A stretch of DNA of 64,000 nt, taken from positions 96,001 through 160,000 of IMG/VR virus record IMGVR_UViG_3300005512_000001. One strand, given 5' to 3'. Below the pieces are notes generated by a model that was not told where the DNA came from, made no database searches, and saw only the letters and a program-made list of their open reading frames with translations. Within the stretch, counting starts at the first letter, position 1, and each line of letters starts with the position of its first letter. Source of the DNA: a virus (taxonomy: Duplodnaviria > Caudoviricetes). The position numbers and the translations under genes are program-made. Positions 36,490 to 64,000 of the stretch are shown in pieces.

Positions 36490-36513
36490 ATATATATATT
36501 TGTCAGATTTGGA

Positions 36514-37470: not shown

Positions 37471-37557
37471 TTTTAATCTCCAAAATTTGTTGTTGGTTCT
37501 AATACATAACGATGGTATATACTGCAAATATAAATGTGGCACTTTAGGAGTACTGAA

Positions 37558-37791
37558 ATGGTCGAAAAAGAACATAATTACCCAAAAACTAGTAGTACAG
37601 AGATGAAAAAGGTCAACAATGCTGTTGTGGGCGATTCTAAGAAACAAACCACATACAACGGCCCACACTTAAATGGTGGAAAGGGCACTGTATATAACCA
37701 AGCCAAAATCACAAATGGTTTTATGACACAAGATTCAAGACCAGGGCATAAACAGCAAGGAAATATAGAGGATAATGCGACTAATAAGTAG
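37558..37791 (+). CDS. small hydrophilic protein
   Basis: AGGAG RBS; CAAATATA upstream. Confidence 0.6.
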   Translation: MVEKEHNYPKTSSTEMKKVNNAVVGDSKKQTTYNGPHLNGGKGTVYNQAKITNGFMTQDSRPGHKQQGNIEDNATNK

Positions 37792-47462: not shown

Positions 47463-48137
47463 ATGAGAGTACCAATTCGTGATGCGGATAGGTTCTTTGT
47501 TGAACTTGATGAGATAGAAAAAATACACTCATACAATATTGATATTAGAAATAGGGAAATATTCATATCTGGGGAGGATGGGCTTGACCCAGATATAGAG
47601 CCTGGCGTTAATTATATTATGTCTGCTAGGTTGATACGTAATCTCCGAATATTAGTTAATCGCAGTAATAAGCCAATATTAATTCATATGAAAACATGTG
47701 GGGGCAGTTGGAACGAGGGGATGGCCATGTATGATGCAATCAAATCATGTCCAACCCATGTTACTATATTGAACTATACTCACGCACGTAGTATGAGTTC
47801 ATTGATATTGCAAGCTGCAGACAGACGAGTTATGATGCCACATTCTGAATTTATGTTTCATCATGGGACATATAGCGATGACGGCGAGATGGTAACTGTT
47901 ATGTCCAACTTAGATTGGTACCGGCGCACAATAGATGTTATGTGCGGCATCTATGTTGATGTTATGAAGGAAACTCCAGGCAGTAAATGGGTAAAGGTTT
48001 CAAAAGATAAGATTAGGCAATGGCTGGATGAGCAGATGGAAAAGAAAAATGATGTATTTATGTCTGCCGAAGATGCTGTGTGCAATGGGTTTGCTGATGC
48101 GGTATTCGACAATGATTGGGGAAAGTTAGTTGGATGA
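47463..48137 (+). CDS. clpP: ClpP-family serine protease
   Basis: REIFISG, TCGGS...GMAMYD, ARSMSS, FMFH, FMSAEDA...GFAD. Confidence 0.88.
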   Translation: MRVPIRDADRFFVELDEIEKIHSYNIDIRNREIFISGEDGLDPDIEPGVNYIMSARLIRNLRILVNRSNKPILIHMKTCGGSWNEGMAMYDAIKSCPTHVTILNYTHARSMSSLILQAADRRVMMPHSEFMFHHGTYSDDGEMVTVMSNLDWYRRTIDVMCGIYVDVMKETPGSKWVKVSKDKIRQWLDEQMEKKNDVFMSAEDAVCNGFADAVFDNDWGKLVG

Positions 48138-48724
48138 TTGTTTCAAAGAAGCACAAGTTTGCTTTTGTACATATTCCGAAAACTGGTGGGACTTCTATTA
48201 CGTTGATGCTTAAGCCATATCTTGGTAGTGGGCCGACCCATGGCCGAGGGTGGCAAAAGGCATATCATAAATATGAATTACATTCCCCATTAATGCCATT
48301 TAATCATATGGGTAATTATTTTAAATTCGCATTTGTTAGAAATCCGTGGGATTGGCTGGTCTCGTTATATCATACTGGTGCGATTAATAGGATGATAGGC
48401 CGAGCTAAAAGGGCTAAAAAACCAGCATGGAATGAATTAATACGAATGATAAATGCTGGGGCTGTGTCAGTTAGATGCCAATCAACATGGCTCAAATGCC
48501 ATGCTGTGTCAGTTGATTATGTTGCAAGATTTGAACAATATGAAAAAGAAGTAGCATATATCTTTAACCGATTGGGACTTAAGTACAAAAATATACCACA
48601 TAGATTGAACAATGGAAGGAAGCGGCAACATTATACTGAATGGTATGATGCTAATAGCCGACGGGTGATTGGGCGGCTGTTTAAACATGATATAACTGCT
48701 TTTAAATATAAATTTGGGAAATAA
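48134..48724 (+). CDS. sulfotransferase family 2
   Basis: FVHIPKTGGTSI, FAFVRNPWDWLVSLY, VARFE. Confidence 0.88.
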   Translation: MIVSKKHKFAFVHIPKTGGTSITLMLKPYLGSGPTHGRGWQKAYHKYELHSPLMPFNHMGNYFKFAFVRNPWDWLVSLYHTGAINRMIGRAKRAKKPAWNELIRMINAGAVSVRCQSTWLKCHAVSVDYVARFEQYEKEVAYIFNRLGLKYKNIPHRLNNGRKRQHYTEWYDANSRRVIGRLFKHDITAFKYKFGK

Positions 48725-48732
48725 TAATAATA

Positions 48733-48951
48733 ATGTTACAATTATTAAAAAAATGGCTAAAGCGTGAGACTCATGTGTTTGTACATTTTGATGGCCCTAT
48801 AAATATAAATATTTCCGGCGAGTATACAAGTTCACAAAATGCAAGTATTTTAAAACAAGGTACGAACGCTGAAGATGATGTTCAGGTTGAGCCAGTATTA
48901 GGCAATATTGAGCTACCTGTGGCAGACTTCGGACAGAACATTAAAGGTTAG
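48733..48951 (+). CDS. hypothetical protein
   Basis: 72-aa ORF in operon. Confidence 0.55.
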   Translation: MLQLLKKWLKRETHVFVHFDGPININISGEYTSSQNASILKQGTNAEDDVQVEPVLGNIELPVADFGQNIKG

Positions 48952-48953
48952 AT

Positions 48954-50018
48954 ATGGCCACTGAATACAATAGAATCGGATTAGACCTTGGGACCAAAAC
49001 CATTGTGTGTGCGATCAGGTCTGGTGATGGTAGACTTACATTTCGCAAAGAAATAAATGGATTTTTTGTGTTTCCTAAGAAAGATGCGTTCACTAGGAAT
49101 ATGTTAGTGAAGCAGAAGATTCCGTTTATAGAGCGAGATGGGAGATTTATTGCCCTCGGGTCTAGGGCGGAACAATTTGCGTATGCGATTAACTCGACAT
49201 TACGTAGGCCAATGGCTGAAGGCACTGTTAGTAGAGAACAAGAGGCCATAAATATTATGGCTTCGATTGTTCAAGCACTTATTGGCAAGCTTGAAAAAGA
49301 TACGATTTTATATTATTGCATCCCAGCAAACGCACTTAATAAACAGACGAATGTGCAATACCATGATAAGGTTGCTAGGTTGATATTTGATAGTTATAAG
49401 AGGTCCGAAGTCACAATTAATGCATACTCAATTAATGAGGCTAGGGCGATTGCAATTGGCAGTGACGAACCTTTAGCGGTTGCAATCTCTTGGGGCGCTG
49501 GCATGATTAATACATGCTATACGATGTTTGGTGTGCCGATATTTGAATTCTCGTTGGTGGGGTCAGGTGACTGGATTGATACTGAAGCTGCAAAGCAATT
49601 TGGTTACAATCCTGATAACCCAACTCAGAAATCTCAAGAAACTCCTACTAGTATTTGCCATCGGAAGCATGATATTGATTTGACAGTTCCTTTGAAAGAA
49701 GCTAATAGGGTTGACCAAGCAATAATGTTGCATTACCAGCTTCTGATTGAGAATGTCATTAATGGCATTATTAATGGATTTGAAAGCAACATCGATAAAG
49801 CCAGAATCGAGCAACCAGTTCCAATCATAATGGCTGGTGGCACAGCTTCACCTGTTGGCTTCAAGGAATACTTCACTCAAATCCTTAACAATCATACATT
49901 GCCGTTTGAGGTATCTGAAGTTAAATTGAGCCCAAAACCTTTGTTTGCAGTCGCAGAAGGCTGCCTTGTTGCCGCTGAGATGCATGAAGTTGAGGAATCA
50001 GAAGAGGCAGAAGGTTAG
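48954..50018 (+). CDS. actin-like ATPase (ParM/MreB/MamK fold)
   Basis: IGLDLGT, INEARA, ISWGAGMIN, GSGDWID, MAGGTA, AVAEG. Confidence 0.85.
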   Translation: MATEYNRIGLDLGTKTIVCAIRSGDGRLTFRKEINGFFVFPKKDAFTRNMLVKQKIPFIERDGRFIALGSRAEQFAYAINSTLRRPMAEGTVSREQEAINIMASIVQALIGKLEKDTILYYCIPANALNKQTNVQYHDKVARLIFDSYKRSEVTINAYSINEARAIAIGSDEPLAVAISWGAGMINTCYTMFGVPIFEFSLVGSGDWIDTEAAKQFGYNPDNPTQKSQETPTSICHRKHDIDLTVPLKEANRVDQAIMLHYQLLIENVINGIINGFESNIDKARIEQPVPIIMAGGTASPVGFKEYFTQILNNHTLPFEVSEVKLSPKPLFAVAEGCLVAAEMHEVEESEEAEG

Positions 50019-50593
50019 AACTTAGGTTTTTTAATCATTGACTTTAGACTTTGCGGCGATTTGACCTTCAGTAGATTCCATACTTTTGACATTTCAGAAT
50101 CCACATCGTCTAATAGTGATTCATACCGAACCATAGCAGATTTTCTCGGATATTCTTTACAGAACATAGAGAATCGATTGTTCATCAATTGGTGAAATGG
50201 TTTGTATATTTCTTCCGGTATAAAGCCGCGTTTTATATTGGCATCTTCTTTTTTATATGACCTATAATTACTATCGGCATTCCTAGAAATAAATATAAAT
50301 CTAGCTTCTGGAAATAGTCTCTCAAGCCATACCCATTCCAACGCATCTATTCCTGGGTTTAGGACTAATTTGGCACCTGACCACTTTGGTAATTTGTCGA
50401 ATGATTCTAAAACTTTAGTATGATATGGTGAGTTTTTATATCTTCGAATCTTCAATAATTGAGCCGCATGCAAAATTTCATGCGGCTCGAACAACACTTT
50501 TTTGACCTGTGGTGATTTAGCAACTAGGTTCCTAAATATTGATGTCCCACTTCTTCTAAGACCTATTAAGAAAAATTTTCCAATCCCAATCAT
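50015..50593 (-). CDS. sulfotransferase-like protein
   Basis: FLIGLRRSGTS, FEP, FPEARFIFISRN, VRYESL. Confidence 0.85.
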   Translation of the reverse strand: MIGIGKFFLIGLRRSGTSIFRNLVAKSPQVKKVLFEPHEILHAAQLLKIRRYKNSPYHTKVLESFDKLPKWSGAKLVLNPGIDALEWVWLERLFPEARFIFISRNADSNYRSYKKEDANIKRGFIPEEIYKPFHQLMNNRFSMFCKEYPRKSAMVRYESLLDDVDSEMSKVWNLLKVKSPQSLKSMIKKPKF

Positions 50594-50649
50594 ATTATAT
50601 TTACACCTGATATATTAGTAAAGGTAAATATAATATTTGGAGAGAAGTT

Positions 50650-51309
50650 ATGATTCCTATGCAATTCACGGGCACAGAATGCGTCAGACCCAAATTAAAT
50701 GAAGCTAGTTATATGTCATTTCATGAAAATTTGGTTGGTGTTGATTGGGGAGCATCAACATTGTTTTTGAACATAGACCCTCTTCCAAAGGGTGCTGATC
50801 CCACTAAGGTCATCGAAGTTGCCGAGAAATTTTTTGGGACTGTTAAACCTAGAATCACACGTAAACCGAATGCGACTGCGGCGCTACAATGGTGTTGGTT
50901 ACAACCAACTGAACCATACTTCTTTCATCTACAAGCAGATTGGGCATTAAGAAAGAAATTTAATATACGAAGCATGATTAAGCTTCTGGTAAAACAGAAA
51001 TTAATAGCAGTTAATTTGCGTTGTTATAGCAAAAAGAAGTTTGAACTATGTCTGTCGCCATCATTGGTTCGCACGCGAGAAGCTAAAAGAATTGCAAGGG
51101 CTTTGAGGCTGGATTGGAATGCAGAACGGCAACTTAGGAAGAGAAAGAAGAATAATCCGAATGGCCGCGATTTACAAGGCAAAATGCGGTCTATACATAT
51201 TCCGCCAAGAGGCAAAGTAATATTCGATATTGGCCGAGCATGGCTTAACGAACACAATTATAAGCGTAATGATGGGTGTAATTTCACCACTTGGGCTAAT
51301 AAGAGATGA
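50650..51309 (+). CDS. GT-A glycosyltransferase-like protein
   Basis: RP....SF..NL, NIDPLP, FFHLQADW, LSPS, DIGR.W; paralog of 57070-57711. Confidence 0.7.
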   Translation: MIPMQFTGTECVRPKLNEASYMSFHENLVGVDWGASTLFLNIDPLPKGADPTKVIEVAEKFFGTVKPRITRKPNATAALQWCWLQPTEPYFFHLQADWALRKKFNIRSMIKLLVKQKLIAVNLRCYSKKKFELCLSPSLVRTREAKRIARALRLDWNAERQLRKRKKNNPNGRDLQGKMRSIHIPPRGKVIFDIGRAWLNEHNYKRNDGCNFTTWANKR

Positions 51310-52178
51310 TAGTTGCTGTTGAATCTAGACACAAAATAGGTATCTTAAACCAGATTAGCAAGTCTCTTGATGCTGCTGGGTTTAAAGTTGTTAGGTATGC
51401 CAGCCCGATGCATGATAACTTTGCTGTTGTGCCGAATTGCGATGTTACAATTGTGTTTAATGGCACACATCATAAATATTGTAAGATTATTAAAAATGCT
51501 AAAAAACGCGGCATTAAGATATTATATGTCGAGCTAGGTTGGCTGCCACAACGTCAATATAGGCAACTTGATTTTAGCGGGATAAATGCTGATGCTTCAT
51601 GGGTAAATGATGAGCTACCAGAATCAAAACATGTACCTTTAAAAATTCGTAGTGGTGGTATATTAGTGCCGCTGCAAAATGATAATGACACATCTATAAA
51701 ATCACATTCACCGTGGTTTGGAAATATGTTTAAATTTTTGCAACACTTAATAAGTTGTTCTACTATGCATATAAAAGTCCGTAAGCACCCTAGACATATT
51801 AAAAAAACAGACCCAAGAGTCATCAAATTAGTTAATAGAAATAAAAAAACTAGTTGGGACTCATCTGGATCGTTTGCAGAGGCAGTACGGTCCGTTAGGG
51901 CTGTAGCTACTATAAATAGCACATCTGGCTTAGAAGCTATAGAAATGGGGTACCCAGTATTGTGTTTTGGTCATGCGATGTATAGAAGGAGCGATGTTTC
52001 GATATGTTTATCAAATAATGTAAAGAACACTATTAAGGCAATAAAAACTATAGAGCGTGGCGATGTTAATCTTAATGGTGGCAATTTAAAATCGTTTATA
52101 AAACTTGTAAAGTCGAAACAAGTATTGTTTGCTGATGTTGCTACTAGGGTGGTTGAGATGTTGGGTGGTTTGTCATGA
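51306..52178 (+). CDS. KpsS/KpsC-like capsule (ulosonate) glycosyltransferase
   Basis: YVELGWLP, GINA, VPLQ..D, RKHPR, TINSTSGLEA. Confidence 0.8.
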   Translation: MIVAVESRHKIGILNQISKSLDAAGFKVVRYASPMHDNFAVVPNCDVTIVFNGTHHKYCKIIKNAKKRGIKILYVELGWLPQRQYRQLDFSGINADASWVNDELPESKHVPLKIRSGGILVPLQNDNDTSIKSHSPWFGNMFKFLQHLISCSTMHIKVRKHPRHIKKTDPRVIKLVNRNKKTSWDSSGSFAEAVRSVRAVATINSTSGLEAIEMGYPVLCFGHAMYRRSDVSICLSNNVKNTIKAIKTIERGDVNLNGGNLKSFIKLVKSKQVLFADVATRVVEMLGGLS

Positions 52179-52951
52179 AATGGTTTTATCAAGATGTTAG
52201 GTGGGGCCTTGGTAATTTTGTGATGGCTACTCCTGCGCTTAGATTAAAATCTGCTAATGATAAGGCGAACATTAAGGTGTTTTTTGGGTCGCCTCATGTT
52301 GGCGATTTATTTGATTATTGCCCGTTTATAAAAAGATTGCATCAAAAACCTGCGGGACCTCCTACTATGCAAATAAGATGCCCCAAGAGGCATGCTGGTG
52401 AGACTGATGCAGAGGCTTGGTGTAGAATATTGTGTGGACACATACCAAAGCCGATGCCAAATACATATGTTGACCGAACTATAACAAAGAGGTTAAATAA
52501 GGTCACAGGAAAGCGGTATATAGCAATTTTTCATGGCTGCTTGAATATGAAAGCTGGGCCGATTGCTAAAAAAGATATTGGTGGGTATGCCAGGCAACAC
52601 ATGATTAATGCAGTATTAAATCGTTCTATGATTCCAGTATTATTGGGTAGCGTAGAAGATTTAAAACGGTTTTGGTGCGATATAAACACAAAAAAATGTG
52701 TTAATTACGTCGGGAAATTATCTTTGAAAGATAGTACCAGCATCCTTGCACAATGTGATAATTTTATGTCGAATGATACTGGTCTATATCATGTGGCTGG
52801 TGCACTAGAAGTTCCAGGGCTGGTTATATGGCGTAAAACTGATATGCTGAAGAATCGGGCTGTTTTTGGTGATATTAAGCATGTTGTGAGTAAGGATATT
52901 AAATTTAAGCATTTGAGATCACATATTGATAAGTATTTGGATTCGCTATGA
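52175..52951 (+). CDS. GT9 (heptosyltransferase-like) glycosyltransferase
   Basis: GLGNFVMATPAL, GKLSL, SNDTGLYHVAGAL.VP. Confidence 0.85.
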   Translation: MKWFYQDVRWGLGNFVMATPALRLKSANDKANIKVFFGSPHVGDLFDYCPFIKRLHQKPAGPPTMQIRCPKRHAGETDAEAWCRILCGHIPKPMPNTYVDRTITKRLNKVTGKRYIAIFHGCLNMKAGPIAKKDIGGYARQHMINAVLNRSMIPVLLGSVEDLKRFWCDINTKKCVNYVGKLSLKDSTSILAQCDNFMSNDTGLYHVAGALEVPGLVIWRKTDMLKNRAVFGDIKHVVSKDIKFKHLRSHIDKYLDSL

Positions 52952-53925
52952 ATATAGTATTCTTAAGGGGTGCAGTGCCCCCGAAATCAGAACACCCTGA
53001 AAAGCTATTATACAATGAGATTGATGATTGCGAAGATGCATGGACGCAGTTATTTTATCGCTTGACGAAGCTGCTTAATGCGAATGGCCAGTTATTATAT
53101 CAAGGTAAATTTAGGCGTTTTGTAGTTGATGAGTCATTTATCGAAATATGGGTGCCATCTTTTGGGAAATATGTTCCAGACACTAAACCAGACCTGATTA
53201 TATGTCGTGGTGGGTTCCCGTACTATGATGCGTTTGTAAAGATGTTTCCAAACGCAGTTAAGATATATTATGGCGCTGGGAAGCGATTTTATCCAACTAG
53301 ATATGATAACTACAATTTATTTTTAGTTGATTCTAGAAAACAATTAAAAACTATTAGGGCTAAGCACAAAAGGGCTGCTTTATTTATCAAGCCAGCTGCC
53401 ACCTTATTCAAACCAGTCAATGTCGAAAAGAAATACGACATATGCTTCGTGGCAAATGCTGGGCAGGCTAAAATCAAACGACACAACTTGTTTCTTAGGG
53501 CATTTGCTGGGTCGCGATTTAAAATTCTAAACCTTGGTAATACCAATAAGAAATTAATCGCATTAGCAAAAGAGCTGAAAGTCGATATTGAATGGGGTGG
53601 ATGGTCTTTGCGAAAGGACTTGCCACGTAAGATATCACAATGCAAAGTCGGTGTCTGTTGCTCTACTAATTATGACTCGTGCCCACGTGTGATACCGGAG
53701 TATTTAGCATGTGGTATACCAATTGTGGCGACTAAAAACATGAATTTTTGGCACGAGAAATATATCACACCAGCTACTGGCATATTGGCATCTGAAAACA
53801 AATTACTTGCAGCAACTAAACAAGCACTAGCAATAAAATCAGACGTACGACATTATTATGATCAAAATCTATCCTTAGATGCAGCTTCAAAATATCTTGC
53901 TGGTGTAGTCCAGGAAATATTATGA
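52948..53925 (+). CDS. GT-B (GT4-like) glycosyltransferase
   Basis: KKYDICFVA, KRH, DSCPRVIPEYLACGIPIV. Confidence 0.82.
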   Translation: MNIVFLRGAVPPKSEHPEKLLYNEIDDCEDAWTQLFYRLTKLLNANGQLLYQGKFRRFVVDESFIEIWVPSFGKYVPDTKPDLIICRGGFPYYDAFVKMFPNAVKIYYGAGKRFYPTRYDNYNLFLVDSRKQLKTIRAKHKRAALFIKPAATLFKPVNVEKKYDICFVANAGQAKIKRHNLFLRAFAGSRFKILNLGNTNKKLIALAKELKVDIEWGGWSLRKDLPRKISQCKVGVCCSTNYDSCPRVIPEYLACGIPIVATKNMNFWHEKYITPATGILASENKLLAATKQALAIKSDVRHYYDQNLSLDAASKYLAGVVQEIL

Positions 53926-54833
53926 GAATTATTTTTAATGCACATCGTGTTGGATTTGGCAATAATGGTGGTAGTAGGACGCTTATTAGGTGTGGGGAAA
54001 CATTGTCGTCGATGGGCAATGAAGTTGTGATGTTTGGTGCGAATAAGTATTCATGGCATAAACCCAGAGGCATAAAGTTTATAAATTGCAGTATATGCCC
54101 AAAATGCGATGTAGTTGTGGCTACAGGGTATCGTAGCGTTCATAGTACTATGTGCACAGATGCTAGTAAAAAATTTTATTATATCCGAGGCTTGGAATTG
54201 TGGGCCGCAAAAGAGTCTCAATTATTGAAGTCTTTTAAATCCTTAGAATGTGTTGTCAATAGCCAATGGTTATATGGGTTTTTAAAAGAACATGGAATAC
54301 AGTCCCGTATAATTTATCAAGGCGTTGATTTTAATAGGTTTTATGACTTAGGCATACCCAGAGATGGGATGGGGTCATTATTTCACCGAAAACACAAAAC
54401 TAAAAGACATGTTGATGCCAACATAGTGGCTGGCATAGCAAATTGTAGTCTAAAATTATTGAATAAAGACATAAAAAATGCGAATGATGCGCAACTAAAT
54501 AATTGGTATAATTCAGTGAAAGTTTGGTTCGCACCAACTGAGCTAGAAGGGCTGCATAATCCGCCGATGGAAGCAGCATTATCTGGTTGTGCTTTAGTAT
54601 GTAGTGATCACCATAGAAATGGCATGGCAGATTATGCTATTGATGGGAAGACTGCACTAGTTTACCCAGCACGTAATTTACAAGTCGCGTCGAAACATGT
54701 ACGACAATTGTTGAATGATGATGACTTGAGGCAGAAGTTGAATACAAACTTGGTAAATCTTTTAAAAAATAAAATAGGTACCAGAATTGCGAATATGCGG
54801 AAATTATTGAAAGTATTTACAAATGAAGGTTGA
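53922..54833 (+). CDS. GT4 glycosyltransferase
   Basis: NNGGSR, NSQWL, QGVD, EGLHNPPMEAALSG. Confidence 0.88.
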   Translation: MRIIFNAHRVGFGNNGGSRTLIRCGETLSSMGNEVVMFGANKYSWHKPRGIKFINCSICPKCDVVVATGYRSVHSTMCTDASKKFYYIRGLELWAAKESQLLKSFKSLECVVNSQWLYGFLKEHGIQSRIIYQGVDFNRFYDLGIPRDGMGSLFHRKHKTKRHVDANIVAGIANCSLKLLNKDIKNANDAQLNNWYNSVKVWFAPTELEGLHNPPMEAALSGCALVCSDHHRNGMADYAIDGKTALVYPARNLQVASKHVRQLLNDDDLRQKLNTNLVNLLKNKIGTRIANMRKLLKVFTNEG

Positions 54834-55482
54834 AAGTCGAGGGCGAAGTGATTTAGAAATACTTAGAGACAATGAGTGTTTTTTTAATAACGCACTAAAT
54901 GATAATGGTGATTACCATTTGTTGATGGGTAGTTGTTATGTTGATCATATATTTAATCTAACTAATAAATATAAATGGTATCTATGTAGAATAATAAATG
55001 TCAGAAGGCATTTACCACAATTAGTGGAATTTTGCAAGTTAACACCAATTGGTGTGTTGTTCGTGACAGCCTTAGGCAATGCGATGGCGATATTGACTAA
55101 AAAACAACTAAGGATTCATCCGCCGTTGTGGCGGAAAGTTGTTGATGATATCGACAAAATTGGAGCCCCAGTATTAATGATTGATATGCCGGCCGCATTC
55201 CATCGTTGTAATATTAATAAAAAAGGATTTTTAAAATTTGCAGCAAGAAGACGCGAAGAATATAAATCATATGTTGTTGGAAAACGCCATAACATCACAC
55301 ATATTGACCTTATGGATTTTGTTAGCCATAAATATAGTGACATAATCGAAAATCGCGATAACAGTCGTCGCACTAAAGCACCATGGCACATCGGGGAATG
55401 CACTTTACGACATATTGTGAAAGCATATGATATGTTTATGAATGGGCGACTTGACCCGAGCTACTTTAACCGATTGTGTTGA
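54823..55482 (+). CDS. hypothetical protein (possible SGNH-like fold)
   Basis: LMGSC near N-terminus, PWH near C-terminus. Confidence 0.5.
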   Translation: MKVESRGRSDLEILRDNECFFNNALNDNGDYHLLMGSCYVDHIFNLTNKYKWYLCRIINVRRHLPQLVEFCKLTPIGVLFVTALGNAMAILTKKQLRIHPPLWRKVVDDIDKIGAPVLMIDMPAAFHRCNINKKGFLKFAARRREEYKSYVVGKRHNITHIDLMDFVSHKYSDIIENRDNSRRTKAPWHIGECTLRHIVKAYDMFMNGRLDPSYFNRLC

Positions 55483-56277: not shown

Positions 56278-56318
56278 AATAGGTGGCCCTTATTCTAGTC
56301 GTAAAAATATATACTTAT

Positions 56319-57077
56319 ATGAATAATTATAAAGTGCATAGTAGAGCCGAAACATGTAAATTGATTGAGTCGTCAATTCAAAATGGCGATAGGCTGGTTG
56401 TGTCTAGATATAGTGATGGTGAAGTGAATATAATGTCAGGTATTGATGCCAGACCATCACTTGCTACTGGCAATGAAAATCCGAAATTTTTGGCCAATAA
56501 ACTAATTAATGCTATTGCTACAAAAGGGCAACTTGTGTGTATTAATGAATTAAAAGCCAAAAACATCGCTCGTAATGATAAGTGGGTTGGGGTTCAACGA
56601 TTTTTAGCAAATGCTGGTAAACGGAATACATATGGCGCAGCTAATTGGAACATTTATGATTTCCAAAATGGTTCGAAGATTTTGTCGCATCTATTTTCTG
56701 GCAAGCTGCTTGTCATAACTGGTTACGATATGATAAAAGGTGTGTTAAAGAGATATAGATCGCATTTTGATATATATAAGACGCCATTAAAAGAGATGTC
56801 CGCTAGGTTTGATGAGCATGCTATGGCTATTAATAAAATGGCTAAAAATAATTATGACAATATTTTATTTTGTTGTGGGCCATCAGGTAAAATTATTTTG
56901 TCGAAGCTTATTGGCGTATGTGAATCAAATTTGGTTGATTTAGGGTCAGTAATAAATGCTATTATAACTGGTCTTGGTAAGGCTGATATCACAAAGAGAT
57001 GGAATATGAGTTGGGTTTCTAATGTTGATCTCAATAAGTGTGCTATGCAATTTGTAAAAGGGCTTAAAAATGTGTAG
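56319..57077 (+). CDS. GT-D fold (DUF1792-like) glycosyltransferase
   Basis: SRYSDGE, CCGPSGK, VDLGS. Confidence 0.7.
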   Translation: MNNYKVHSRAETCKLIESSIQNGDRLVVSRYSDGEVNIMSGIDARPSLATGNENPKFLANKLINAIATKGQLVCINELKAKNIARNDKWVGVQRFLANAGKRNTYGAANWNIYDFQNGSKILSHLFSGKLLVITGYDMIKGVLKRYRSHFDIYKTPLKEMSARFDEHAMAINKMAKNNYDNILFCCGPSGKIILSKLIGVCESNLVDLGSVINAIITGLGKADITKRWNMSWVSNVDLNKCAMQFVKGLKNV

Positions 57078-57711
57078 CATTGTCTTTACGACCACAGCAA
57101 CAAATAGGCCAGAGATATTACGCAGAACTTATGCATCATTTTCTGCGAATCTAGTCGGCCTTAATTTAAAAGACATTGATTTATTGATTAATATAGACCC
57201 ACTACCAAATAAAATCAATATCAACGCAAATGTTGATGTTGCGAAATCATTTTTCAAAACTGTCAGAGTCAATACTCCTGATAAACCTAGCTTCTCAACT
57301 GCTATAAATTGGCTCTGGAGCGAGGCACAATCACCGTATATTTTCCATCTAGAAGATGATTGGATACTATTAAAGCCAATTAAGGTAAAGTCGTTATTGA
57401 AAAATATGGGCAATAAGTTACAAATTATTTTGAGAGCTTATGGATATAAATATGATAAAATGGTGTTGTCTCCGAGCATTATTAGACATGAATTGTATTC
57501 TCGAATTGGTGGTAGATTAGATGAAACTATAAACCCAGAAATTCAATTGCGTAATCCATCTATTGTTGGCGTTAAAATCGATAAATCAATGTTGCTTGAT
57601 TTTCCTCAGAATAAGATTATTGTTAAAGACATAGGCAGGAAATGGATGGACCAGCAAGATTTCAAGAAACCAGATAAGAAATTTAAATTTTATAGATGGA
57701 TAAGAAAATGA
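57070..57711 (+). CDS. GT-A glycosyltransferase-like protein
   Basis: TTATNRP, NIDPLP, FHLEDDW, NPE.QLR, DIGRKW. Confidence 0.72.
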   Translation: MCSIVFTTTATNRPEILRRTYASFSANLVGLNLKDIDLLINIDPLPNKININANVDVAKSFFKTVRVNTPDKPSFSTAINWLWSEAQSPYIFHLEDDWILLKPIKVKSLLKNMGNKLQIILRAYGYKYDKMVLSPSIIRHELYSRIGGRLDETINPEIQLRNPSIVGVKIDKSMLLDFPQNKIIVKDIGRKWMDQQDFKKPDKKFKFYRWIRK

Positions 57712-58832
57712 AAAAACTACTATTTATTGCGACTATATATCGGCCCGGCGAAAAAGTATATCCAATACTACCCCGATTGGCAGAATTTTGTGATGTCGAC
57801 GTTTATTTATTCAACCAGATGAGCCCAACAATGGAGTGGCAAGGCAATATTGATATACGGGAGAAATTCTACCGGTCTGCTAGGCAGCATGCTAATGAAG
57901 TTATTGTCGGCCCAACATACCATAAAGTCCATAGAGAGCATAGAACAAGCGGATTTAAAAATCTAATAAACAAACAGATAAATTTTTCAAAATATGACTT
58001 GGTATTTATTGATGATAATGTATCTAAACCAGCATGGGGTACTCCATTATTATATAAAAAAGCTAAGAATGCTGGCGTGTTGGTGGTTGCGCAACCACAT
58101 GGTAACAGAGAGTTTAATTTATATGTGTCTCGGTATATTTTTAAGTCATTTGATATGTCTTTTGTTTTTGGGCCAAAAGAAGTTAGGAAATTTAATAGCG
58201 GCAAGATGAAGGGGCGCATATTTGGTGGCGGCATCCCTGCTAATGACAAACTAAAAGACTATAAACGTGGAAATAAGTATATTCTGGTAATACCAAATCA
58301 TACTTCTGTTCCAAAGAGCAGAACTGGATATTTAAGATTTACTAGTGAGTCTTTTGCGCAATGTGGGGCTTTACAACTTAGCCAGAAGCTAGGATGCCCT
58401 ATAGTTGTGAAAATGAAGACTAGACCAAGTTGCATGAAAGATAAACGGAGATTTGAATCTGATTTAGGGACACTAGCAGGGCGAGGTGTTAAGATATTAT
58501 TAGATGTTGATGATGATAATGAGTTAATAATGAATGCAGCATGTGTAATTAGCTCCCCATCAACATTAGCGTTTAAATCTATCCAAGCTGGCATCCCTAC
58601 CGCTGTTCTAAATAAACAAGGAATGATTGGGAATTTTGCTGACTACCCTGGTTTGGTGCCATGTAAGCCAAAGCTAGTTCTTAAAACAATTATAAATCAG
58701 ACGAAGATTGGTAGGCTTACGGATTGGATTGTTGATAATTTAGATGGGGGCATTGATTATTCATCGACGGATATTTACCTAAAAAAGCTCAGGTGGTTGC
58801 TTTATAATCGCAATGTTTCTCTAAATATATAG
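57708..58832 (+). CDS. GT-B fold protein (sialyltransferase, TagB or NeuC-like)
   Basis: QPHGN, GIPAND.L, SSPSTLAF.S...GIP. Confidence 0.6.
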   Translation: MKKLLFIATIYRPGEKVYPILPRLAEFCDVDVYLFNQMSPTMEWQGNIDIREKFYRSARQHANEVIVGPTYHKVHREHRTSGFKNLINKQINFSKYDLVFIDDNVSKPAWGTPLLYKKAKNAGVLVVAQPHGNREFNLYVSRYIFKSFDMSFVFGPKEVRKFNSGKMKGRIFGGGIPANDKLKDYKRGNKYILVIPNHTSVPKSRTGYLRFTSESFAQCGALQLSQKLGCPIVVKMKTRPSCMKDKRRFESDLGTLAGRGVKILLDVDDDNELIMNAACVISSPSTLAFKSIQAGIPTAVLNKQGMIGNFADYPGLVPCKPKLVLKTIINQTKIGRLTDWIVDNLDGGIDYSSTDIYLKKLRWLLYNRNVSLNI

Positions 58833-59576
58833 ATGTGGGTGTTTTAAATAGTGTCTATCTTTAGGGTCATTAGTGACTTTGTATGATGGGTCGTTAAATG
58901 GTGGGGTAGGCCCGAATAACTTTTTTGATAGTTTCAATATTTGTTTATTGAACATCGATAAATAGAATTGATCTCCAGCGTATGTTTTCCACCGGTTGAG
59001 AACATCCATATTTTGTGCTTTGCCATTGTATCGTGTTTTATCGAAGCTACTACCAGCACCATGTTTTGTTACTTTGTTTATGGATTTATCCTTGCATGAT
59101 AAACCTAAAGATTTTGCCAGCTTATCACGGTATGGTCTTTCGCTGAACCATTTATTATAATTAACAAAAATGGAATTAGATGGAAGATATGATGATAAAC
59201 TCAATGCTTCGGTGGCAAATTCTATCCATCCAGTCTGAATGTCATTGATGGTTTTCCGCACCCAATTTCTGCTTGGTGCCACCCCCCAAGATCTAATTTG
59301 CGACGCAAATAAATTAAATGGGTCACGCAGTACATAGGTTATAATTTTGTTTGTATCCCTATGAGGATTTTGTTCCGATAATATTTTGAATTGTTTGAGA
59401 GATACAGTCCCCTGCTTTATAACCACTGGGCAGCGTGATTTTTGCTCAAAATATCTAATGTACCCATCTTTTGTTGATACTCTGGATTTTACCTTCGTAT
59501 TTGCATTAATCCAATATAATACTGCACTCGAACCAGACCGGCCTAATGCAAATAGATAAATTTCTCTATATTTCAT
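58821..59576 (-). CDS. sulfotransferase-like protein
   Basis: ALGRSGSSAV, LRDPFNLFAS, YNKWF, GAGSSFD. Confidence 0.75.
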   Translation of the reverse strand: MKYREIYLFALGRSGSSAVLYWINANTKVKSRVSTKDGYIRYFEQKSRCPVVIKQGTVSLKQFKILSEQNPHRDTNKIITYVLRDPFNLFASQIRSWGVAPSRNWVRKTINDIQTGWIEFATEALSLSSYLPSNSIFVNYNKWFSERPYRDKLAKSLGLSCKDKSINKVTKHGAGSSFDKTRYNGKAQNMDVLNRWKTYAGDQFYLSMFNKQILKLSKKLFGPTPPFNDPSYKVTNDPKDRHYLKHPHLYI

Positions 59577-59631
59577 ATAATATTTTTTAATAGAATATTC
59601 TCATATGTGATGTTTCTGGTAAATATCATAT

Positions 59632-60405
59632 ATGAGTAGAACACAAACCACTATTACGTGCAGAGATTGTGATTATATCCCTAAAGTGCCAAATGCTGGT
59701 GAAGTTATAGGTAATTGCCAGATCATGCATAATGGCATTAAAGTGTATATTGGTGGGTATTATGGCAAATGGATGACTGATATTATACATGAGCTTAAGG
59801 GGCATCATGAGCCACAAGAAGAAAAAGTTTTCTTTGAGATTTTAAAGAGAATCAAGCCGGGCTCAACTATGATTGAATTAGGAAGTTTTTGGGCTTATTA
59901 CTCTATGTGGTTTAACAAATCAATTAAAAATGCTAATAGCATTATGGTGGAGCCTAGTCCCAACAAGCTATTATTAGGTAAAAAACATTTTAAACTTAAT
60001 AATATGACTGGAACTTTCATTCATGCTGCGGCTGGTAATTGCTATAAGGATTCTATGGCGTTTAAGGACTGGAAAGGTAAGATTAGAGACATATCCCAGG
60101 TTTCAATTGATTATTTAGTGAGCGAATTAAAACTTGAAGATATACATATTGTGCATTCAGATATTCAACGCGCTGAAGTTGATATGTTGCGTGGGTGTGC
60201 AAAATCATTTGGGAAAGTACATTACTTCGTTATTTCTACACACGGCGATGATAATCATAGGCGGTGCCTTAAGATTTTAGAAAATAGGAAGTTTAATATA
60301 ATAGCACAACACAAACCATCTCAGAGTTATTCTGTTGATGGTTTGATAGCGGCTGGCAACCCACGTAAAGTTGAAGCGTTTAATATAGAAATTAGTCGGA
60401 GATAG
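59632..60405 (+). CDS. FkbM-family methyltransferase
   Basis: HHEPQEE, IELGSFWAYYS, VEP, HSDIQ.AE, ISTH. Confidence 0.88.
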   Translation: MSRTQTTITCRDCDYIPKVPNAGEVIGNCQIMHNGIKVYIGGYYGKWMTDIIHELKGHHEPQEEKVFFEILKRIKPGSTMIELGSFWAYYSMWFNKSIKNANSIMVEPSPNKLLLGKKHFKLNNMTGTFIHAAAGNCYKDSMAFKDWKGKIRDISQVSIDYLVSELKLEDIHIVHSDIQRAEVDMLRGCAKSFGKVHYFVISTHGDDNHRRCLKILENRKFNIIAQHKPSQSYSVDGLIAAGNPRKVEAFNIEISRR

Positions 60406-60408
60406 GTA

Positions 60409-61059
60409 ATGCCAAAGTTTTATGGTCAACATCGTGAAGATCGCATTTTAGCTAACTTTTTTAAGAAAAATACCGGGTTTTATGTTGATGTTGGTGCTGC
60501 TAGCGGCATTAAACTTAGCAACACTTATCATTTTGAGTTATTGGGTTGGGATGGAATTTGTGTTGAACCATACCAACCATTTTTTAAGCAATTGAGGCGA
60601 AATAGGAATGCAATTGTGGTTTTTGGTGCGGCATATGATCAGACTGGTAAGGTGGTATTGTATGGTCATGAGAAAGGGTTTATAAGTACAACTGAAATTG
60701 ATGATGCAGTAAAGATGCGACGTAAAACCAGAAGGGGATGTGGTACTGATAAGTCAGAATATAATGGTCGTGTGGTGCCGAGTTTTAGAATTGCCGATAT
60801 TCTCGATGAACACAATGCACCAAATAATATAGACTTATTCTCTCTTGATGTTGAGGGTGGAGAGTTCAAAGTCCTTGATGGGCATGATTTTGATAAATAT
60901 GATGTGAGAGTATTTGTGATTGAAGCGAATACAACATCACAACGTGAACAATTAAATAGTCGAATGAGTGAACATGGATATGAGTGCGCATTAGTACATA
61001 AATGCAACTGCTTTTATTCTAAGCATAATGATGTTTTAGGATTAAGGAATTCGAAATGA
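60409..61059 (+). CDS. FkbM-family methyltransferase
   Basis: GQHRED, VDVGA..G...SNT, GWDGICVEP, SLDVEGGE. Confidence 0.9.
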   Translation: MPKFYGQHREDRILANFFKKNTGFYVDVGAASGIKLSNTYHFELLGWDGICVEPYQPFFKQLRRNRNAIVVFGAAYDQTGKVVLYGHEKGFISTTEIDDAVKMRRKTRRGCGTDKSEYNGRVVPSFRIADILDEHNAPNNIDLFSLDVEGGEFKVLDGHDFDKYDVRVFVIEANTTSQREQLNSRMSEHGYECALVHKCNCFYSKHNDVLGLRNSK

Positions 61060-62021
61060 GTATTGGCGTCTATTTGACTAGCCGAAATAATTACAATATG
61101 TTGGACCAATATTGGGCACCGAACTTGAGGCCATTTCTAACGCCAAATATGCGTGTGCTTAATATTGATGAGGATTCTAGCAAAGAAGAGAAACATAAGG
61201 GTCGGAAGATATGCAAGAAACACAATATAATATATATGGACCGAGAAGAAAAAGGCATGAGTTTTAATGCAGTGTCTGCATGTAACTTCTTCAATGCTGA
61301 CTGGCTAATTTGGTTCCAACACGACTGTTGGCCTATTACACCCGGTTTTTTTGAAAAGTTCGACGCAATGGTAGTTAGTGGTGCATTAGATAAATTTGGT
61401 GCGGTAGGTTTTAATACAGTTGCGGCTGATGTGGAAACTGATTATGACACAACTATTGTGGCAGCGAAGAAGGGAGAAAAACCACTTGCATTGATTGGCA
61501 GAAGTGGCCTTACACCATATAGATGGTACACAGGGCGTCCAATAAAGCGGAATGCAATGTTGCCGAAACCAAGAAGATGGCGCAAGCCATCGGCTGTAGA
61601 ATCAATCGCTTGGATGGCCATAGCCATTAATGTTAAGTTGTATCAGAAACATATCATACCAACAACAGATTTTCTGTTCTTCCATGCTTGGGATGATGTG
61701 TGTTATCAATTTTTGGCTAAAAACATATATAATGTAGCAATACCTAGCTTATATATAGACCATAGGCCAGGCTTGAAAGGCCAAGCTGGCTTGCCGAAGT
61801 CATCTACTAAAGTGGCTAAGAGAGGCATAGAAACTTATCATCCAGGTAAATGGACACATTTAAAAACATGGAAGAACAAATGGGGGTGGGATTGGCGTAA
61901 TCCGCAATCTTTCGCTAAAGTGGCTAAGAAGTATAGAAATACATTGCTGCATGAATTTTTTAATCATAATTTTGCTACTGGCCCATTAGCAACATTTGAT
62001 GTGCCTGGCGGCAGCATCTGA
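61056..62021 (+). CDS. GT2-like glycosyltransferase
   Basis: SRNN, IDEDS, WFQHDC, WDD.C. Confidence 0.75.
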   Translation: MSIGVYLTSRNNYNMLDQYWAPNLRPFLTPNMRVLNIDEDSSKEEKHKGRKICKKHNIIYMDREEKGMSFNAVSACNFFNADWLIWFQHDCWPITPGFFEKFDAMVVSGALDKFGAVGFNTVAADVETDYDTTIVAAKKGEKPLALIGRSGLTPYRWYTGRPIKRNAMLPKPRRWRKPSAVESIAWMAIAINVKLYQKHIIPTTDFLFFHAWDDVCYQFLAKNIYNVAIPSLYIDHRPGLKGQAGLPKSSTKVAKRGIETYHPGKWTHLKTWKNKWGWDWRNPQSFAKVAKKYRNTLLHEFFNHNFATGPLATFDVPGGSI

Positions 62022-62032
62022 GGAGATATATC

Positions 62033-62740
62033 ATGATTAATGGTAAGAAGGTTTTAGCAATTACTTTGGCTAGGGGCGGGTCAAAGAGCATTCCACGTAA
62101 GAATATTATAGATATAAATGGCAAACCACTATTGCAATATACAACTGATGAGGTAGCCAAGAGTGCATATATAGATGATTATTATTTATCTACTGAAGAT
62201 TCTGAGATAATGTCAGTAGGACGCAATCTTGGTGTGCCTATAATTGAAAGGCCGACTGAATTAGCATCAGACACTGCTACTTCGTATGATGCAATAATGC
62301 ATGCTATAGACCATCTAGACGCGTGGGGTGTGTACGACTATATAGTAGAGGTGATGGTAACTAATCCATTGAAAACTGTTGATGATATTGATGCATGCAT
62401 CAGTAAATTGTATTCTAGTGGTGCTGATAGTGTCACATCTGTGGTAAGAATTTACGACCACCACCCATCACGTGTTAAATATATTCAACACGATAGGATG
62501 ATGAGTTTTTATCCGGAGCAGCCTGAATCTAGAAGACAAGATTTATTGCCGCCAGCATATGTGCGTAATGGATCGATTTATGCAATAACTTTGTTGGCTT
62601 TTAATAAGTATAAGTCTAGAGTAGGTGCTGATGCTGTTCCGTACATAATGCCGCAAGAAAGGACTGTTAATATTGATGAACCTGCTGATTTGAAATTAGC
62701 TGAGCTTCTAATTACTGGGTCCATGGCGTTTAGGAAATAA
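62033..62740 (+). CDS. neuA: acylneuraminate cytidylyltransferase
   Basis: LARGGSKSIPRKN, RP.ELASD, TNPL, RRQDL, NGSIY, NIDE..D. Confidence 0.92.
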   Translation: MINGKKVLAITLARGGSKSIPRKNIIDINGKPLLQYTTDEVAKSAYIDDYYLSTEDSEIMSVGRNLGVPIIERPTELASDTATSYDAIMHAIDHLDAWGVYDYIVEVMVTNPLKTVDDIDACISKLYSSGADSVTSVVRIYDHHPSRVKYIQHDRMMSFYPEQPESRRQDLLPPAYVRNGSIYAITLLAFNKYKSRVGADAVPYIMPQERTVNIDEPADLKLAELLITGSMAFRK

Positions 62741-62741
62741 C

Positions 62742-63680
62742 ATGAAAATTTTATGTGTGACGCCGGTTAAACATATTGCTGGAGTTTGTGAAACTCTTAA
62801 TTCATATGGCGATGTCACATATGAAGAGGCTGCCAATAAATCTGAAGTGCAGGAATTATTACATCATAATTATGATGTCCTATATGTGAATCCCAATAAG
62901 ATGACATATAGAATAGATGATGATTTATTAGGCGATGCTTGCACTCTGCGTGCTGTTTGCACCGCATCAACCGGCACAAATCATATCGATAAGGATATGT
63001 GTAAAAGACGCGATATAAAAGTTCTATCTTTAACAACAGACTACGCTACGATAGAACGCATTAGTTCTACAGCAGAACATGCATTTTGTTTGATGATCTC
63101 ATTAGTTCGTAATTTACCAAGTGCATTCGCTGCAGCGCAACAGTTTAAGTGGGATTATACTAAATTTATAGGGCGGCAATTAAACCATCTGACTGCTGGA
63201 ATTGTTGGATATGGTAGACTTGGCAAAATGATGGCAGGATATTGTGAGGCATTTGGTATGGAGATTTTGGTCTGCGATCCATATAAAAATACTGATGGAT
63301 TCCCAAACTTAGAATTAAGTGAACTGTGTTCTAAAAGTGATGTTGTGTCTATGCATGTTCATTTAAACAATGAAACGACGGATATGATTAATCACCGTAT
63401 CATCAAAAAATGCAATGATGCATATTTGATTAACACATCACGCGGGGGTGTTGTCAATGAAGTTGATGTGGTGGATGGTCTGGAATCTGGCTACTTACAT
63501 GGGTATGCGACTGACGTAATAGGCGATGAACTAGGCAATGTCGCCCGTAGTATCTTGATTGAAAAATCTAAAGATTTAAATATCATAATAACACCACATA
63601 TCGGTGGGATGACCACGGAGGCGCAGGAAATCGCTTATAATAGTGCCGCAAATAAAATTGGAGATTTAATAGATGAGTAA
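62742..63680 (+). CDS. D-isomer-specific 2-hydroxyacid dehydrogenase (SerA-like)
   Basis: STGTNHID, TAEH, GIVGYGRLG, INTSRG, TPHIGG.T.E. Confidence 0.9.
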   Translation: MKILCVTPVKHIAGVCETLNSYGDVTYEEAANKSEVQELLHHNYDVLYVNPNKMTYRIDDDLLGDACTLRAVCTASTGTNHIDKDMCKRRDIKVLSLTTDYATIERISSTAEHAFCLMISLVRNLPSAFAAAQQFKWDYTKFIGRQLNHLTAGIVGYGRLGKMMAGYCEAFGMEILVCDPYKNTDGFPNLELSELCSKSDVVSMHVHLNNETTDMINHRIIKKCNDAYLINTSRGGVVNEVDVVDGLESGYLHGYATDVIGDELGNVARSILIEKSKDLNIIITPHIGGMTTEAQEIAYNSAANKIGDLIDE

Positions 63681-64000
63681 ACATTTGGATTATTGGCGAA
63701 AAAGGAATAAAGCTGGGTATCAGAGGCTAATTGCGACACAACCGTTTTTACATGAGAATTCAGAGGAATTGATTAAATTTCTTGATGAGAATAATATATT
63801 CTTTGATGGTATCTCGGTTTTCGAAATTGGTTGTGGGTGCGGGCGTAATTTGAAGTATATGGCAGATGCACAACCAACTGCTAGGCTTGCTGGTAATGAC
63901 CTTAGCAAAGCATTGTGTTTTAAGCATATGGCGAAAAACCTAAAAAAAGTAATAGATTTCCGCGAGATTGACACCAAATCATTATTTTCCGGCAAGCCAT
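63673..64000 (+). CDS. class I SAM methyltransferase (runs off the window end)
   Basis: MSKHLDYW...FEIGCGCGRNL...GND. Confidence 0.75.
   Translation, partial: MSKHLDYWRKRNKAGYQRLIATQPFLHENSEELIKFLDENNIFFDGISVFEIGCGCGRNLKYMADAQPTARLAGNDLSKALCFKHMAKNLKKVIDFREIDTKSLFSGKP

Follow-up and report, generated by a model that had tools for sequence, protein, structure and literature searches.

The uncultured tailed phage represented by IMG/VR record IMGVR_UViG_3300005512_000001 carries a dense island of genes for glycan synthesis and modification in the 64,000-nt stretch analyzed here (bases 96001-160000 of the record). This stretch is referred to below as the window, and its numbering is used unless genome coordinates are indicated. 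The record is a single viral sequence of 341,434 bp with direct terminal repeats according to IMG/VR and a CheckV completeness of 100%, and its closest protein-level relatives are uncultured 'huge phages'. The island extends from the ATG at 48134 to window-equivalent position 65138 and comprises 22 open reading frames (ORFs) in about 17 kb, mostly on the + strand and coupled by overlaps of 4-11 nt. The original prediction, which placed it at 48134-64000, delimited the block correctly but stopped about 1.1 kb short of its end, which lies beyond the window end at a split DnaE gene. The island codes for eight supported glycosyltransferases and one weak candidate, up to four sulfotransferase-like proteins, and three methyltransferases, together with a NeuB-family synthase, a cytidine monophosphate (CMP)-transferase, and a 2-hydroxyacid dehydrogenase resembling phosphoglycerate dehydrogenase (PGDH). 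All the enzyme classes that had been claimed are present where they had been placed, as judged from Pfam, fold, paralogy, and motif evidence. The best explanation of the locus is a predicted phage-owned cytoplasmic glycosylation factory.

Three of these genes form a conserved core. One specifies the NeuB-family synthase, predicted to condense phosphoenolpyruvate (PEP) with an aldose (55483-56277, - strand; Pfam PF03102, 150 bits against a cut-off of 22.1), which consists of the TIM barrel only, ends after the barrel at 264 aa, and has no SAF (antifreeze-like) domain. In an alignment to the Neisseria meningitidis NeuB (1XUU), the positions corresponding to E25, K53, Q55, K129, S213, H215, E234, H236, and D247 are all kept and are invariant across a 20-sequence family alignment, with Ser in place of N184; we take the catalytic roles of these residues to be those of the 1XUZ structure. 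A G-x-W-D loop is common to the island NeuB and PseI (alignment with 8H2C), and the best match in the PDB is 6NCS, itself a SAF-less homolog of 290 aa. The other two genes are neighbors on the + strand, one coding for a CMP-ulosonate synthetase of the NeuA/PseF/KdsB family (62033-62740; PF02348, CTP_transf_3, E = 3.6e-20, 73 bits against a cut-off of 22.6) and the other for a D-2-hydroxyacid dehydrogenase (62742-63680; PF02826, E = 3.4e-40; PDB 1WWK, E = 6.6e-33), whose nearest kin are short phosphoglycerate dehydrogenases. We conclude that the predicted product of this trio is a CMP-activated 2-keto-3-deoxy acid sugar. Its identity as a nonulosonate is putative: scores fall far below the equivalog cut-offs both for the synthase (TIGR03569, 154 against 399.65 bits; TIGR03586, 128 against 340.25 bits) and for the CMP-transferase (best equivalog PseF, 130 against 205.7), NeuC was not found in the genome, and the core has the extra dehydrogenase. 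A literature search returned no described pathway pairing a NeuB-type synthase with a 2-hydroxyacid dehydrogenase, and to our knowledge no nonulosonate pathway has a counterpart of the latter enzyme.

The short synthase has a wide distribution outside cellular genomes. More than 2,300 metagenomic relatives have the same short length, at 45-59% identity, and many of them lie on contigs of 100-550 kb. For the cellular comparison, one genome per species was used from 185,579 prokaryote species, and the best 80 loci were inspected: the best cellular match is 37% identical, 78 of 79 cellular homologs are full length with the SAF domain (at least 323 aa), and none of the 80 loci has a dehydrogenase gene beside NeuB. 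In a quick maximum-likelihood search with Shimodaira-Hasegawa-like approximate likelihood ratio test (SH-aLRT) support, the short SAF-less NeuBs form one viral/metagenomic clade with a long stem and 99% support, apart from 44 cellular sequences. The only cellular-labeled member of the clade comes from a Flavobacteriaceae metagenome-assembled genome (MAG; JADHME010000003.1, L030:441-1274). It is 37% identical to the island NeuB and 45% identical to that of locus L006, and a normal NeuB of 347 aa is encoded 8 kb away from it. This member hints, if weakly, at Bacteroidota as the host or as the source of the gene. A partial NeuB-family protein labeled as from a Candidatus Asgardarchaeia MAG (P0092) is near-identical in the tree to the NeuB of a 548-kb phage (branch lengths 0.005 and 0); the supposedly archaeal record probably stems from a piece of phage DNA that was binned wrongly.

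The trio itself recurs in viral genomes. At least eight distinct viral contigs in IMG/VR have the CTP_transf_3, dehydrogenase, and short NeuB genes adjacent to each other. For the CMP-transferase, 17 viral loci were found, the 13 closest at 57-62% identity, and the dehydrogenase gene always adjoins its gene in the relatives. In a 461-kb phage (IMGVR_UViG_3300037247_001786), the two are fused into one 557-aa protein (L004/L019:9974-11647), which is the strongest hint that both enzymes may share one intermediate. The transferase sets flanking the trio vary by contig and include GT2, GT4, GT29-like sialyltransferase, FkbM, NAD-epimerase, and UDP-glucose dehydrogenase genes. That the closest homologs should be phage proteins is borne out for the core genes, the nearest relatives of which are viral or metagenomic. 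At the nucleotide level, a megablast search of the island against 50,697 GenBank phage records gave no match.

The glycosyltransferases surrounding the core are mostly compact. A small GT-A-like enzyme (50650-51309, + strand) belongs to a family with PF00535 members and is a paralog, at 34% identity, of a second one bearing an EDD motif (57070-57711, + strand); the latter is 48% identical to a gene product of the 461-kb phage and has homologs with PF00535, one of them named GT2 by its source. The first is followed on the same strand by a KpsS/KpsC-like (Capsule_synth) protein, which is a candidate ulosonate transferase (51306-52178; PF05159, E = 7.2e-12), a GT9-like protein matching the profile through its C-terminal donor-binding half only (52175-52951; PF01075, E = 4.3e-12), and two GT4 enzymes (52948-53925, PF00534, E = 2.5e-11; 53922-54833, PF00534, E = 7.9e-9), the former 39% identical to a gene product in the island of the 461-kb phage. 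Two further proteins belong to phage-specific families conserved in both the 548-kb and the 461-kb trio phages. One is a GT-A (GT2-like) enzyme (61056-62021, + strand), with template modeling (TM) scores of 0.63-0.70 to GT2 clusters in the Atlas, and lies, like the next protein, in clusters that consist almost wholly of Uroviricota proteins. The other is a GT-B-fold protein (57696-58832, + strand), with TM scores of 0.64-0.71 to GT4 and Epimerase_2 clusters, the nearest being Uroviricota; the modeled fold suggests a transferase, or possibly an epimerase-like enzyme, and a related-locus search with it as query found none. The weak candidate is a possible GT-D-like protein (56283-57077, + strand; NCBIfam NF040628, E = 0.0012, below the cut-off), and a search for a Maf/DUF115-type transferase (PF01973) found none, the best hit (E = 0.014) lying outside the island.

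The predicted decorating enzymes are interspersed with these. Two sulfotransferases are recognized by Pfam: a Sulfotransfer_2 protein at the left end (48134-48724, + strand; PF03567, E = 5.4e-16) with a PKTGGTS motif in the loop for 3'-phosphoadenosine-5'-phosphosulfate (PAPS), and a Sulfotransfer_3 protein (50015-50593, - strand; PF13469, E = 4e-11). The ORF of the former opens at the TTG at 48116, and its probable start is the ATG at 48134, which overlaps the stop codon of the preceding ClpP-like gene. A gene beyond the window (window-equivalent 64260-65138) specifies a further sulfotransferase-like protein with PAPS-loop motifs and a homolog (P0245) matching PF13469, and another such protein is encoded at 58821-59576 (- strand), where the assignment comes from the GRSGSS and RDP motifs alone. 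A GT-A reading of this last protein was first taken because a 1003-aa paralog has a DXD glycosyltransferase domain; it was dropped, as the protein aligns to the N-terminal 240 residues of that paralog and has sulfotransferase-type PAPS motifs. Two FkbM-type methyltransferases (59632-60405, PF05050, E = 9.3e-6; 60409-61059, PF05050, E = 2.3e-18; both + strand) and a SAM-dependent methyltransferase (Methyltransf_12/25, + strand), the gene of which runs from 63673 to window-equivalent 64263 and is cut by the window end at 64000, complete the set. The 219-aa protein at 54823-55482 (+ strand) has no assignment, with Pfam, NCBIfam, PHROG, and PDB searches all empty. PHROGs had no match for eight unassigned island ORFs, the volactin homolog described below, or the KpsS-like protein, and phmmer against the PDB gave none for 64260-65138, 57070-57711, or 54823-55482.

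The 1003-aa paralog lies in a second small glyco-locus (genome 261207-265285), beside a third GT4 (356 aa). Its N-terminal 240 residues are the sulfotransferase-like paralog of 58821-59576, and its C-terminus is a GT32/TcdA-like DXD glycosyltransferase domain. An AAATATA motif stands 3 nt upstream, and a GroEL homolog comes next (265363-266997). The gene list of the original prediction was right as far as it went but overlooked a full-length volactin-family actin-like protein within the main island (48954-50018, + strand; PF25216, E = 1.7e-49; weak MamK match), which scores 169.5 bits against a curated cut-off of 35 and covers profile positions 3-321 of 321. It is preceded by a 72-aa ORF (48733-48951). 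Among GenBank phages, its homologs occur in two uncultured huge phages only (LR756511.1, 36% identity; LR745208.1, 28%), and a 195-kb viral contig has a copy, 34% identical, within about 10 kb of a CMP-transferase gene. Our search of the literature found volactin described in haloarchaea only.

The pathway appears to be soluble throughout. No membrane helices are predicted in 21 of the 22 island proteins, the remaining one having a single marginal segment (u219b). As had been noted from the sequence, no Wzx, ABC exporter, or priming transferase is visible: when the complete genome was searched with profiles, PF01943 (Wzx), PF01061 (ABC-2 permease), PF02397 (Bac_transf), and PF00953 (WecA/MraY-type) were all without a match, as were PF02350 (NeuC, the hydrolyzing UDP-N-acetylglucosamine 2-epimerase) and PF01583 (adenosine 5'-phosphosulfate kinase), with control genomes positive for each of these profiles. 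With respect to Wzy, a hydropathy scan of the whole genome found no large polytopic transporter-like protein (PF04932 itself was not searched), and a Pfam scan of the longest membrane-protein candidates returned an M50 peptidase and proteins with no assignment. Across 22 related viral loci, none of the 536 ORFs is polytopic; of the cellular NeuB loci, by comparison, 38 among the best 80 have proteins of at least 300 aa with at least six membrane helices. The missing export genes are a trait of this whole class of viral loci.

The island sits within a replication and nucleotide-metabolism module, between ClpP-like/ribonucleotide reductase (RNR) genes and DnaE, with a neck gene about 35 kb further on. 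Its left border is a ClpP-family protease gene (47463-48137, + strand), which shares 4 nt with the first sulfotransferase gene and is distinct from the prohead protease at genome position 238860. Beyond its right border, where export or polymerase genes had been considered as a sign of a host locus, the genes are the split DnaE, MazG, uracil-DNA glycosylase (UDG), and RecA. The window and its flanks further code for a phage helicase, SbcCD, a thymidylate-synthase-like enzyme, a PurZ-like enzyme, DnaB, and PolA, and both the RNR and RecA are intein-bearing. The G+C content of the island is that of the remaining genome. This, the phage-clade homologs of the core genes, and a phage promoter motif rule out a host-derived capsule locus, in agreement with the original prediction of a phage locus.

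The motif in question, AAATATA, had been reported ahead of several island genes. It is found in promoter position at four unit heads only (48704, 50596 on the - strand, 50626, and 56305). Over the whole window, its frequency is close to that expected by chance (43 copies against 31 ± 5.7). Genome-wide, 41 of its 190 occurrences fall in the 2.8% of strand space upstream of gene starts (p = 2e-24). In the 40-nt upstream windows, it occurs 41 times against 11 for its reverse complement, and it ranks top among all 21 same-composition permutations. The share of genes that it precedes is 14% in the genome's structural half and 4% over the first 96 kb, and those with a copy upstream include the genes for the tail sheath, the large terminase (TerL), the prohead protease, and the neck protein. 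Within the island, the late-type motif at 48704-48710 (+ strand) lies 22 nt upstream of the 72-aa ORF and the volactin gene, and a divergent pair (50596-50602, - strand; 50626-50632, + strand) lies between the Sulfotransfer_3 gene and the main glycosyltransferase operon. The copy at 56305-56311 makes the ATG at 56319, 7 nt past it, the probable start of the GT-D-like gene. Since the motif is common to the structural genes, expression of the island is probably late. The motif often ends 1-7 nt before the start codon, as at 36495-36501 and 50596-50602 (both - strand), with no room for a leader or Shine-Dalgarno sequence; this spacing suggests leaderless or very-short-leader late mRNAs. It also stands upstream of a gene (genome 59054-60679, - strand) for a 541-aa protein with a homing-endonuclease-like region and a C-terminal Mom-like DNA-modification domain.

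A scan of all ORFs of the genome for Ser/Thr-rich tracts brought out two proteins far above the rest. P0247 (1339 aa; 32470-36489, - strand), a candidate glycan acceptor, has two tracts of about 310 and 90 aa built of repeats of six to seven serines followed by Val, Ile, or Ala. P0248 (719 aa; genome 286150-288309) has about 190 aa of the same repeat, including a VVSPPYSSS motif that also occurs in P0247. Serine makes up 88-90% of 40-aa windows within these tracts and is specified by all six of its codons, which argues for selection on the protein rather than DNA slippage. P0247 combines a lectin-like Laminin_G_3 domain with a C-terminal right-handed beta-helix resembling polysaccharide lyases of family PL6 (Pfam Beta_helix matched by 18 of 24 homologs; profile match to PL6 lyases at E = 1e-5), and AAATATA lies 5 nt upstream of its start. 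P0247 is a putative virion protein. For the C-terminal domains, phmmer against the PDB gave no match in the case of P0247 and a chance-level one in that of P0248 (E = 0.85), and single-sequence AlphaFold2 models were unusable, with mean predicted local distance difference test (pLDDT) scores of 35 and 32, respectively; a tblastn search with the P0248 domain had no match in the GenBank phage records. Similar proteins occur in other phages with the trio: the 548-kb phage has two laminin G proteins with poly-Ser tails, and the 461-kb phage has one Ser/Thr tract. The public gene call for the P0247 ORF (P0249) is 960 aa long and begins at residue 380 of the 1339-aa frame, so that it lacks the N-terminal domain as well as all of the first poly-Ser tract; automatic annotation may systematically hide such tracts.

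From these features a pathway can be proposed. The SAF-less NeuB-family enzyme would join PEP to an aldose taken from the host, and the CTP_transf_3 enzyme would activate the resulting 2-keto-3-deoxy acid sugar as a CMP-sugar, with the PGDH-like dehydrogenase tailoring the same intermediate or one of its substituents. Eight to nine compact GT-A/GT-B transferases, one of them KpsS-like, would then build an oligosaccharide from the acid sugar and host nucleoside diphosphate-sugars, and the sulfotransferases, drawing on host PAPS, and the FkbM- and SAM-dependent methyltransferases would decorate it. The acceptors would most likely be the phage's own proteins, chiefly the long poly-Ser tracts of P0247 and P0248, the former resembling a lectin-plus-depolymerase fiber. 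The outcome would be mucin-like, acidic, protease-resistant virion appendages. The explanation draws chiefly on a parallel: the co-occurrence of GT4, GT-A, and GT-D-like enzymes with long Ser repeats, as in the serine-rich repeat adhesins; the autonomous glycosylation systems of giant viruses follow a similar logic. The poly-Ser proteins are plausible glycan acceptors.

We regard glycosylation of the virion or of other phage proteins as the best reading and would give it an even chance of being right. It is favored because the soluble pathway, the phage-specific core, the promoter motif shared with structural genes, and the poly-Ser proteins all fit it. A more daring form, which we put forward tentatively and with some doubt, is that huge phages make 'phage mucins': the trio would yield a CMP-activated acidic sugar other than neuraminic (Neu), pseudaminic (Pse), legionaminic (Leg), ketodeoxynonulosonic (Kdn), or ketodeoxyoctulosonic (Kdo) acid, and the variable transferases, sulfotransferases, and methyltransferases would attach it to hundreds of consecutive serines of lectin/depolymerase fibers, giving the virion a sulfated, sialic-acid-like brush. 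Several observations weigh against self-glycosylation. The poly-Ser genes lie outside the island, 12 kb and about 125 kb from it, and that of P0247 sits amid nucleotide-metabolism genes; its beta-helix C-terminal domain found no match in a tblastn search of the GenBank phage records. AAATATA also precedes some non-structural genes (PurZ, MazG), and the dehydrogenase of the conserved core has no matching step in described nonulosonate pathways. The GT9 and Capsule_synth families, finally, classically act on lipid A-core or phosphatidylglycerol acceptors.

This last point leads to an alternative in the host envelope, namely that a new acidic, sulfated oligosaccharide is built by the soluble or peripheral transferases on a host lipid (lipid A-core, phosphatidylglycerol, or undecaprenyl phosphate-linked chains) at the inner membrane face and carried outward by the host MsbA/Lpt system or a capsule exporter, so as to block superinfection or keep progeny virions off debris. 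From what is known of the families, GT9 and KpsS-like enzymes normally use lipid-linked acceptors, and the combination of GT9, GT2/GT4, NeuB, and NeuA in the absence of Wzx/Wzy resembles sialylated lipooligosaccharide loci such as that of Campylobacter jejuni. As loci of this type need no dedicated exporter, the lack of exporter genes is no evidence against such a route. Host surface modification is also the published reading for the glycosyltransferase clusters of T4-like marine phages (PMC7824862, PMC7029224). However, the GT9-like protein is as short as 258 aa and the KpsS-like one as 290 aa, and since only their donor-binding halves match the profiles, their acceptor domains appear to have diverged. 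Moreover, neither a Kdo transferase nor a lipid A gene is present, the core enzymes group in a clade specific to phages and do not look like copies from a host, a promoter motif common to late structural genes would leave the envelope hardly enough of a lytic cycle to turn over, and the phage-encoded poly-Ser proteins offer a ready acceptor. We think envelope remodeling unlikely, if still a serious competitor.

Two other products come into question. A free or lysis-released glycoconjugate, either a cytoplasmic oligosaccharide with methyl or sulfate groups or a phage protein that carries the glycan but is no part of the virion (a secreted depolymerase or a matrix component, for example), could act in the infected cell or in the lysate. 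This would suit a fully soluble pathway for which no exporter was found; the PL6-like beta-helix of P0247 and the C-terminal domain of P0248 could act as free enzymes, and mycobacteria have cytoplasmic polymethylated polysaccharides. It has no known precedent in phages, though, where beta-helix lyase domains are typically those of tailspikes, and the promoter motif is common to virion genes; we consider it rather improbable. Hypermodification of DNA, with the transferases glycosylating hydroxymethylated bases of the phage DNA as in the T-even phages and newer phage DNA glycans, would accord with the heavy investment of this phage in DNA modification—its thymidylate-synthase-like enzyme (36514-37668) is extended at the N-terminus, and it also has the Mom-like protein and PurZ—and phage GT-B enzymes building DNA glycans are known (10.1101/2023.12.21.572611). 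That paper, however, makes no mention of sialic, nonulosonic, CMP-sugar, or sulfotransferase components, and no DNA-binding or base-flipping domain is detected in the island proteins by Pfam. A DNA glycan of the kinds known to date, with one to three sugars, would not call for anything like the eight to nine transferases, up to four sulfotransferases, and three methyltransferases of the island, and we consider this reading very improbable.

Giant eukaryotic viruses and a few mycobacteriophages are established cases of glycosylation by viral enzymes. For marine and jumbo phages, the only reading given so far to their large blocks of glycosyltransferase genes, without experiments, is that they modify the host O-antigen. 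The present locus gives the question of virion versus host a testable shape, with its complete export-free genome, phage-specific acidic-sugar trio, multiple sulfotransferases, and two explicit candidate acceptors. If the glycan is indeed on the particle, adsorption, adherence to mucus or particles, protease resistance, and immune recognition would be affected, and the trio could yield a new activated sugar as well as new compact transferases for glycoengineering.

Among known systems, the Gram-positive serine-rich repeat proteins (SRRPs) are O-glycosylated in the cytoplasm by soluble GT4 (GtfA/GtfB), GT-A, and GT-D (DUF1792) enzymes that modify long Ser repeats with no lipid carrier. The phage likewise has two GT4 enzymes, GT-A enzymes, a weak GT-D-like ORF, and two long Ser-repeat proteins; the likeness drawn here is one of enzyme classes and substrate type. 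Unlike those systems, it has no accessory Sec system, and would need none as a phage released by lysis; its repeats are near-pure Ser6-7 plus Val instead of SxSx dipeptides, and the predicted decoration with ulosonic acid, sulfate, and methyl groups is not known from SRRP glycans. The bacterial nonulosonic acid pathways (NeuC-NeuB-NeuA, Pse, Leg) and the sialylation loci for flagellin and lipooligosaccharide have two successive steps in common with the island, namely condensation by a NeuB-family enzyme that keeps the catalytic residues and then activation by a CTP_transf_3 enzyme. In contrast to them, the phage lacks NeuC, PseB/C/H/G, the Leg enzymes, and the SAF domain, and has the PGDH-like dehydrogenase as an obligatory partner.

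Islands of this kind are already described in general terms in the literature. The glycosyltransferase clusters of T4-like marine and jumbo myophages are read as modifiers of the host O-chain or surface (Iyer et al. 2021, PMC7824862; Zaragoza-Solas et al. 2020, PMC7029224). Like the island, those of the P-SSM2-type cyanophages and the 'host recognition cluster' of pelagimyophages combine a variable block of sugar-nucleotide enzymes with paralogous glycosyltransferases in a large phage, differ in content between relatives, and have a function never demonstrated by experiment. They differ in that the island is built around the phage-specific trio with its SAF-less NeuB and has multiple sulfotransferases. 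The pelagimyophage-type cluster, moreover, lies in the structural module by tail-fiber genes (between VrlC and gp14) and not between ClpP-like/RNR genes and a split DnaE, and while those clusters have been interpreted in print as modifying the host O-chain, the features of this phage, a complete genome with no export genes and its poly-Ser proteins, lean toward self-glycosylation. Giant viruses (PBCV-1 with its capsid glycans, the Megavirinae with their fibril glycans, and CroV; PMC9614988) also use soluble virus-encoded sugar-nucleotide enzymes, transferases, and methyltransferases in the cytoplasm, and CroV has an ulosonic-acid branch with a NeuA-like cytidylyltransferase in a putative Kdo cluster (PMC9614988). 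They decorate their own particle proteins. The island phage differs from them in being a tailed phage with a bacterial host, a NeuB-type instead of a KdsA-type synthase, predicted sulfation, and poly-Ser candidate acceptors. According to the account in PMC12619734 of Freeman et al. (2023, PMC10527164), mycobacteriophages O-glycosylate their structural proteins with their own glycosyltransferases, the only experimentally proven case known of phage enzymes acting on phage proteins in tailed phages; there, a few transferases act on the C-terminal tails of capsid and tail-tube subunits in phages of Actinobacteria, with no ulosonate synthesis, sulfation, or poly-Ser fiber. Set against all these systems, the island stands out by its trio, in which the dehydrogenase is an obligatory member, by a phage clade of NeuBs without the SAF domain, by how many sulfotransferases it has, and by two poly-Ser proteins as explicit candidate acceptors.

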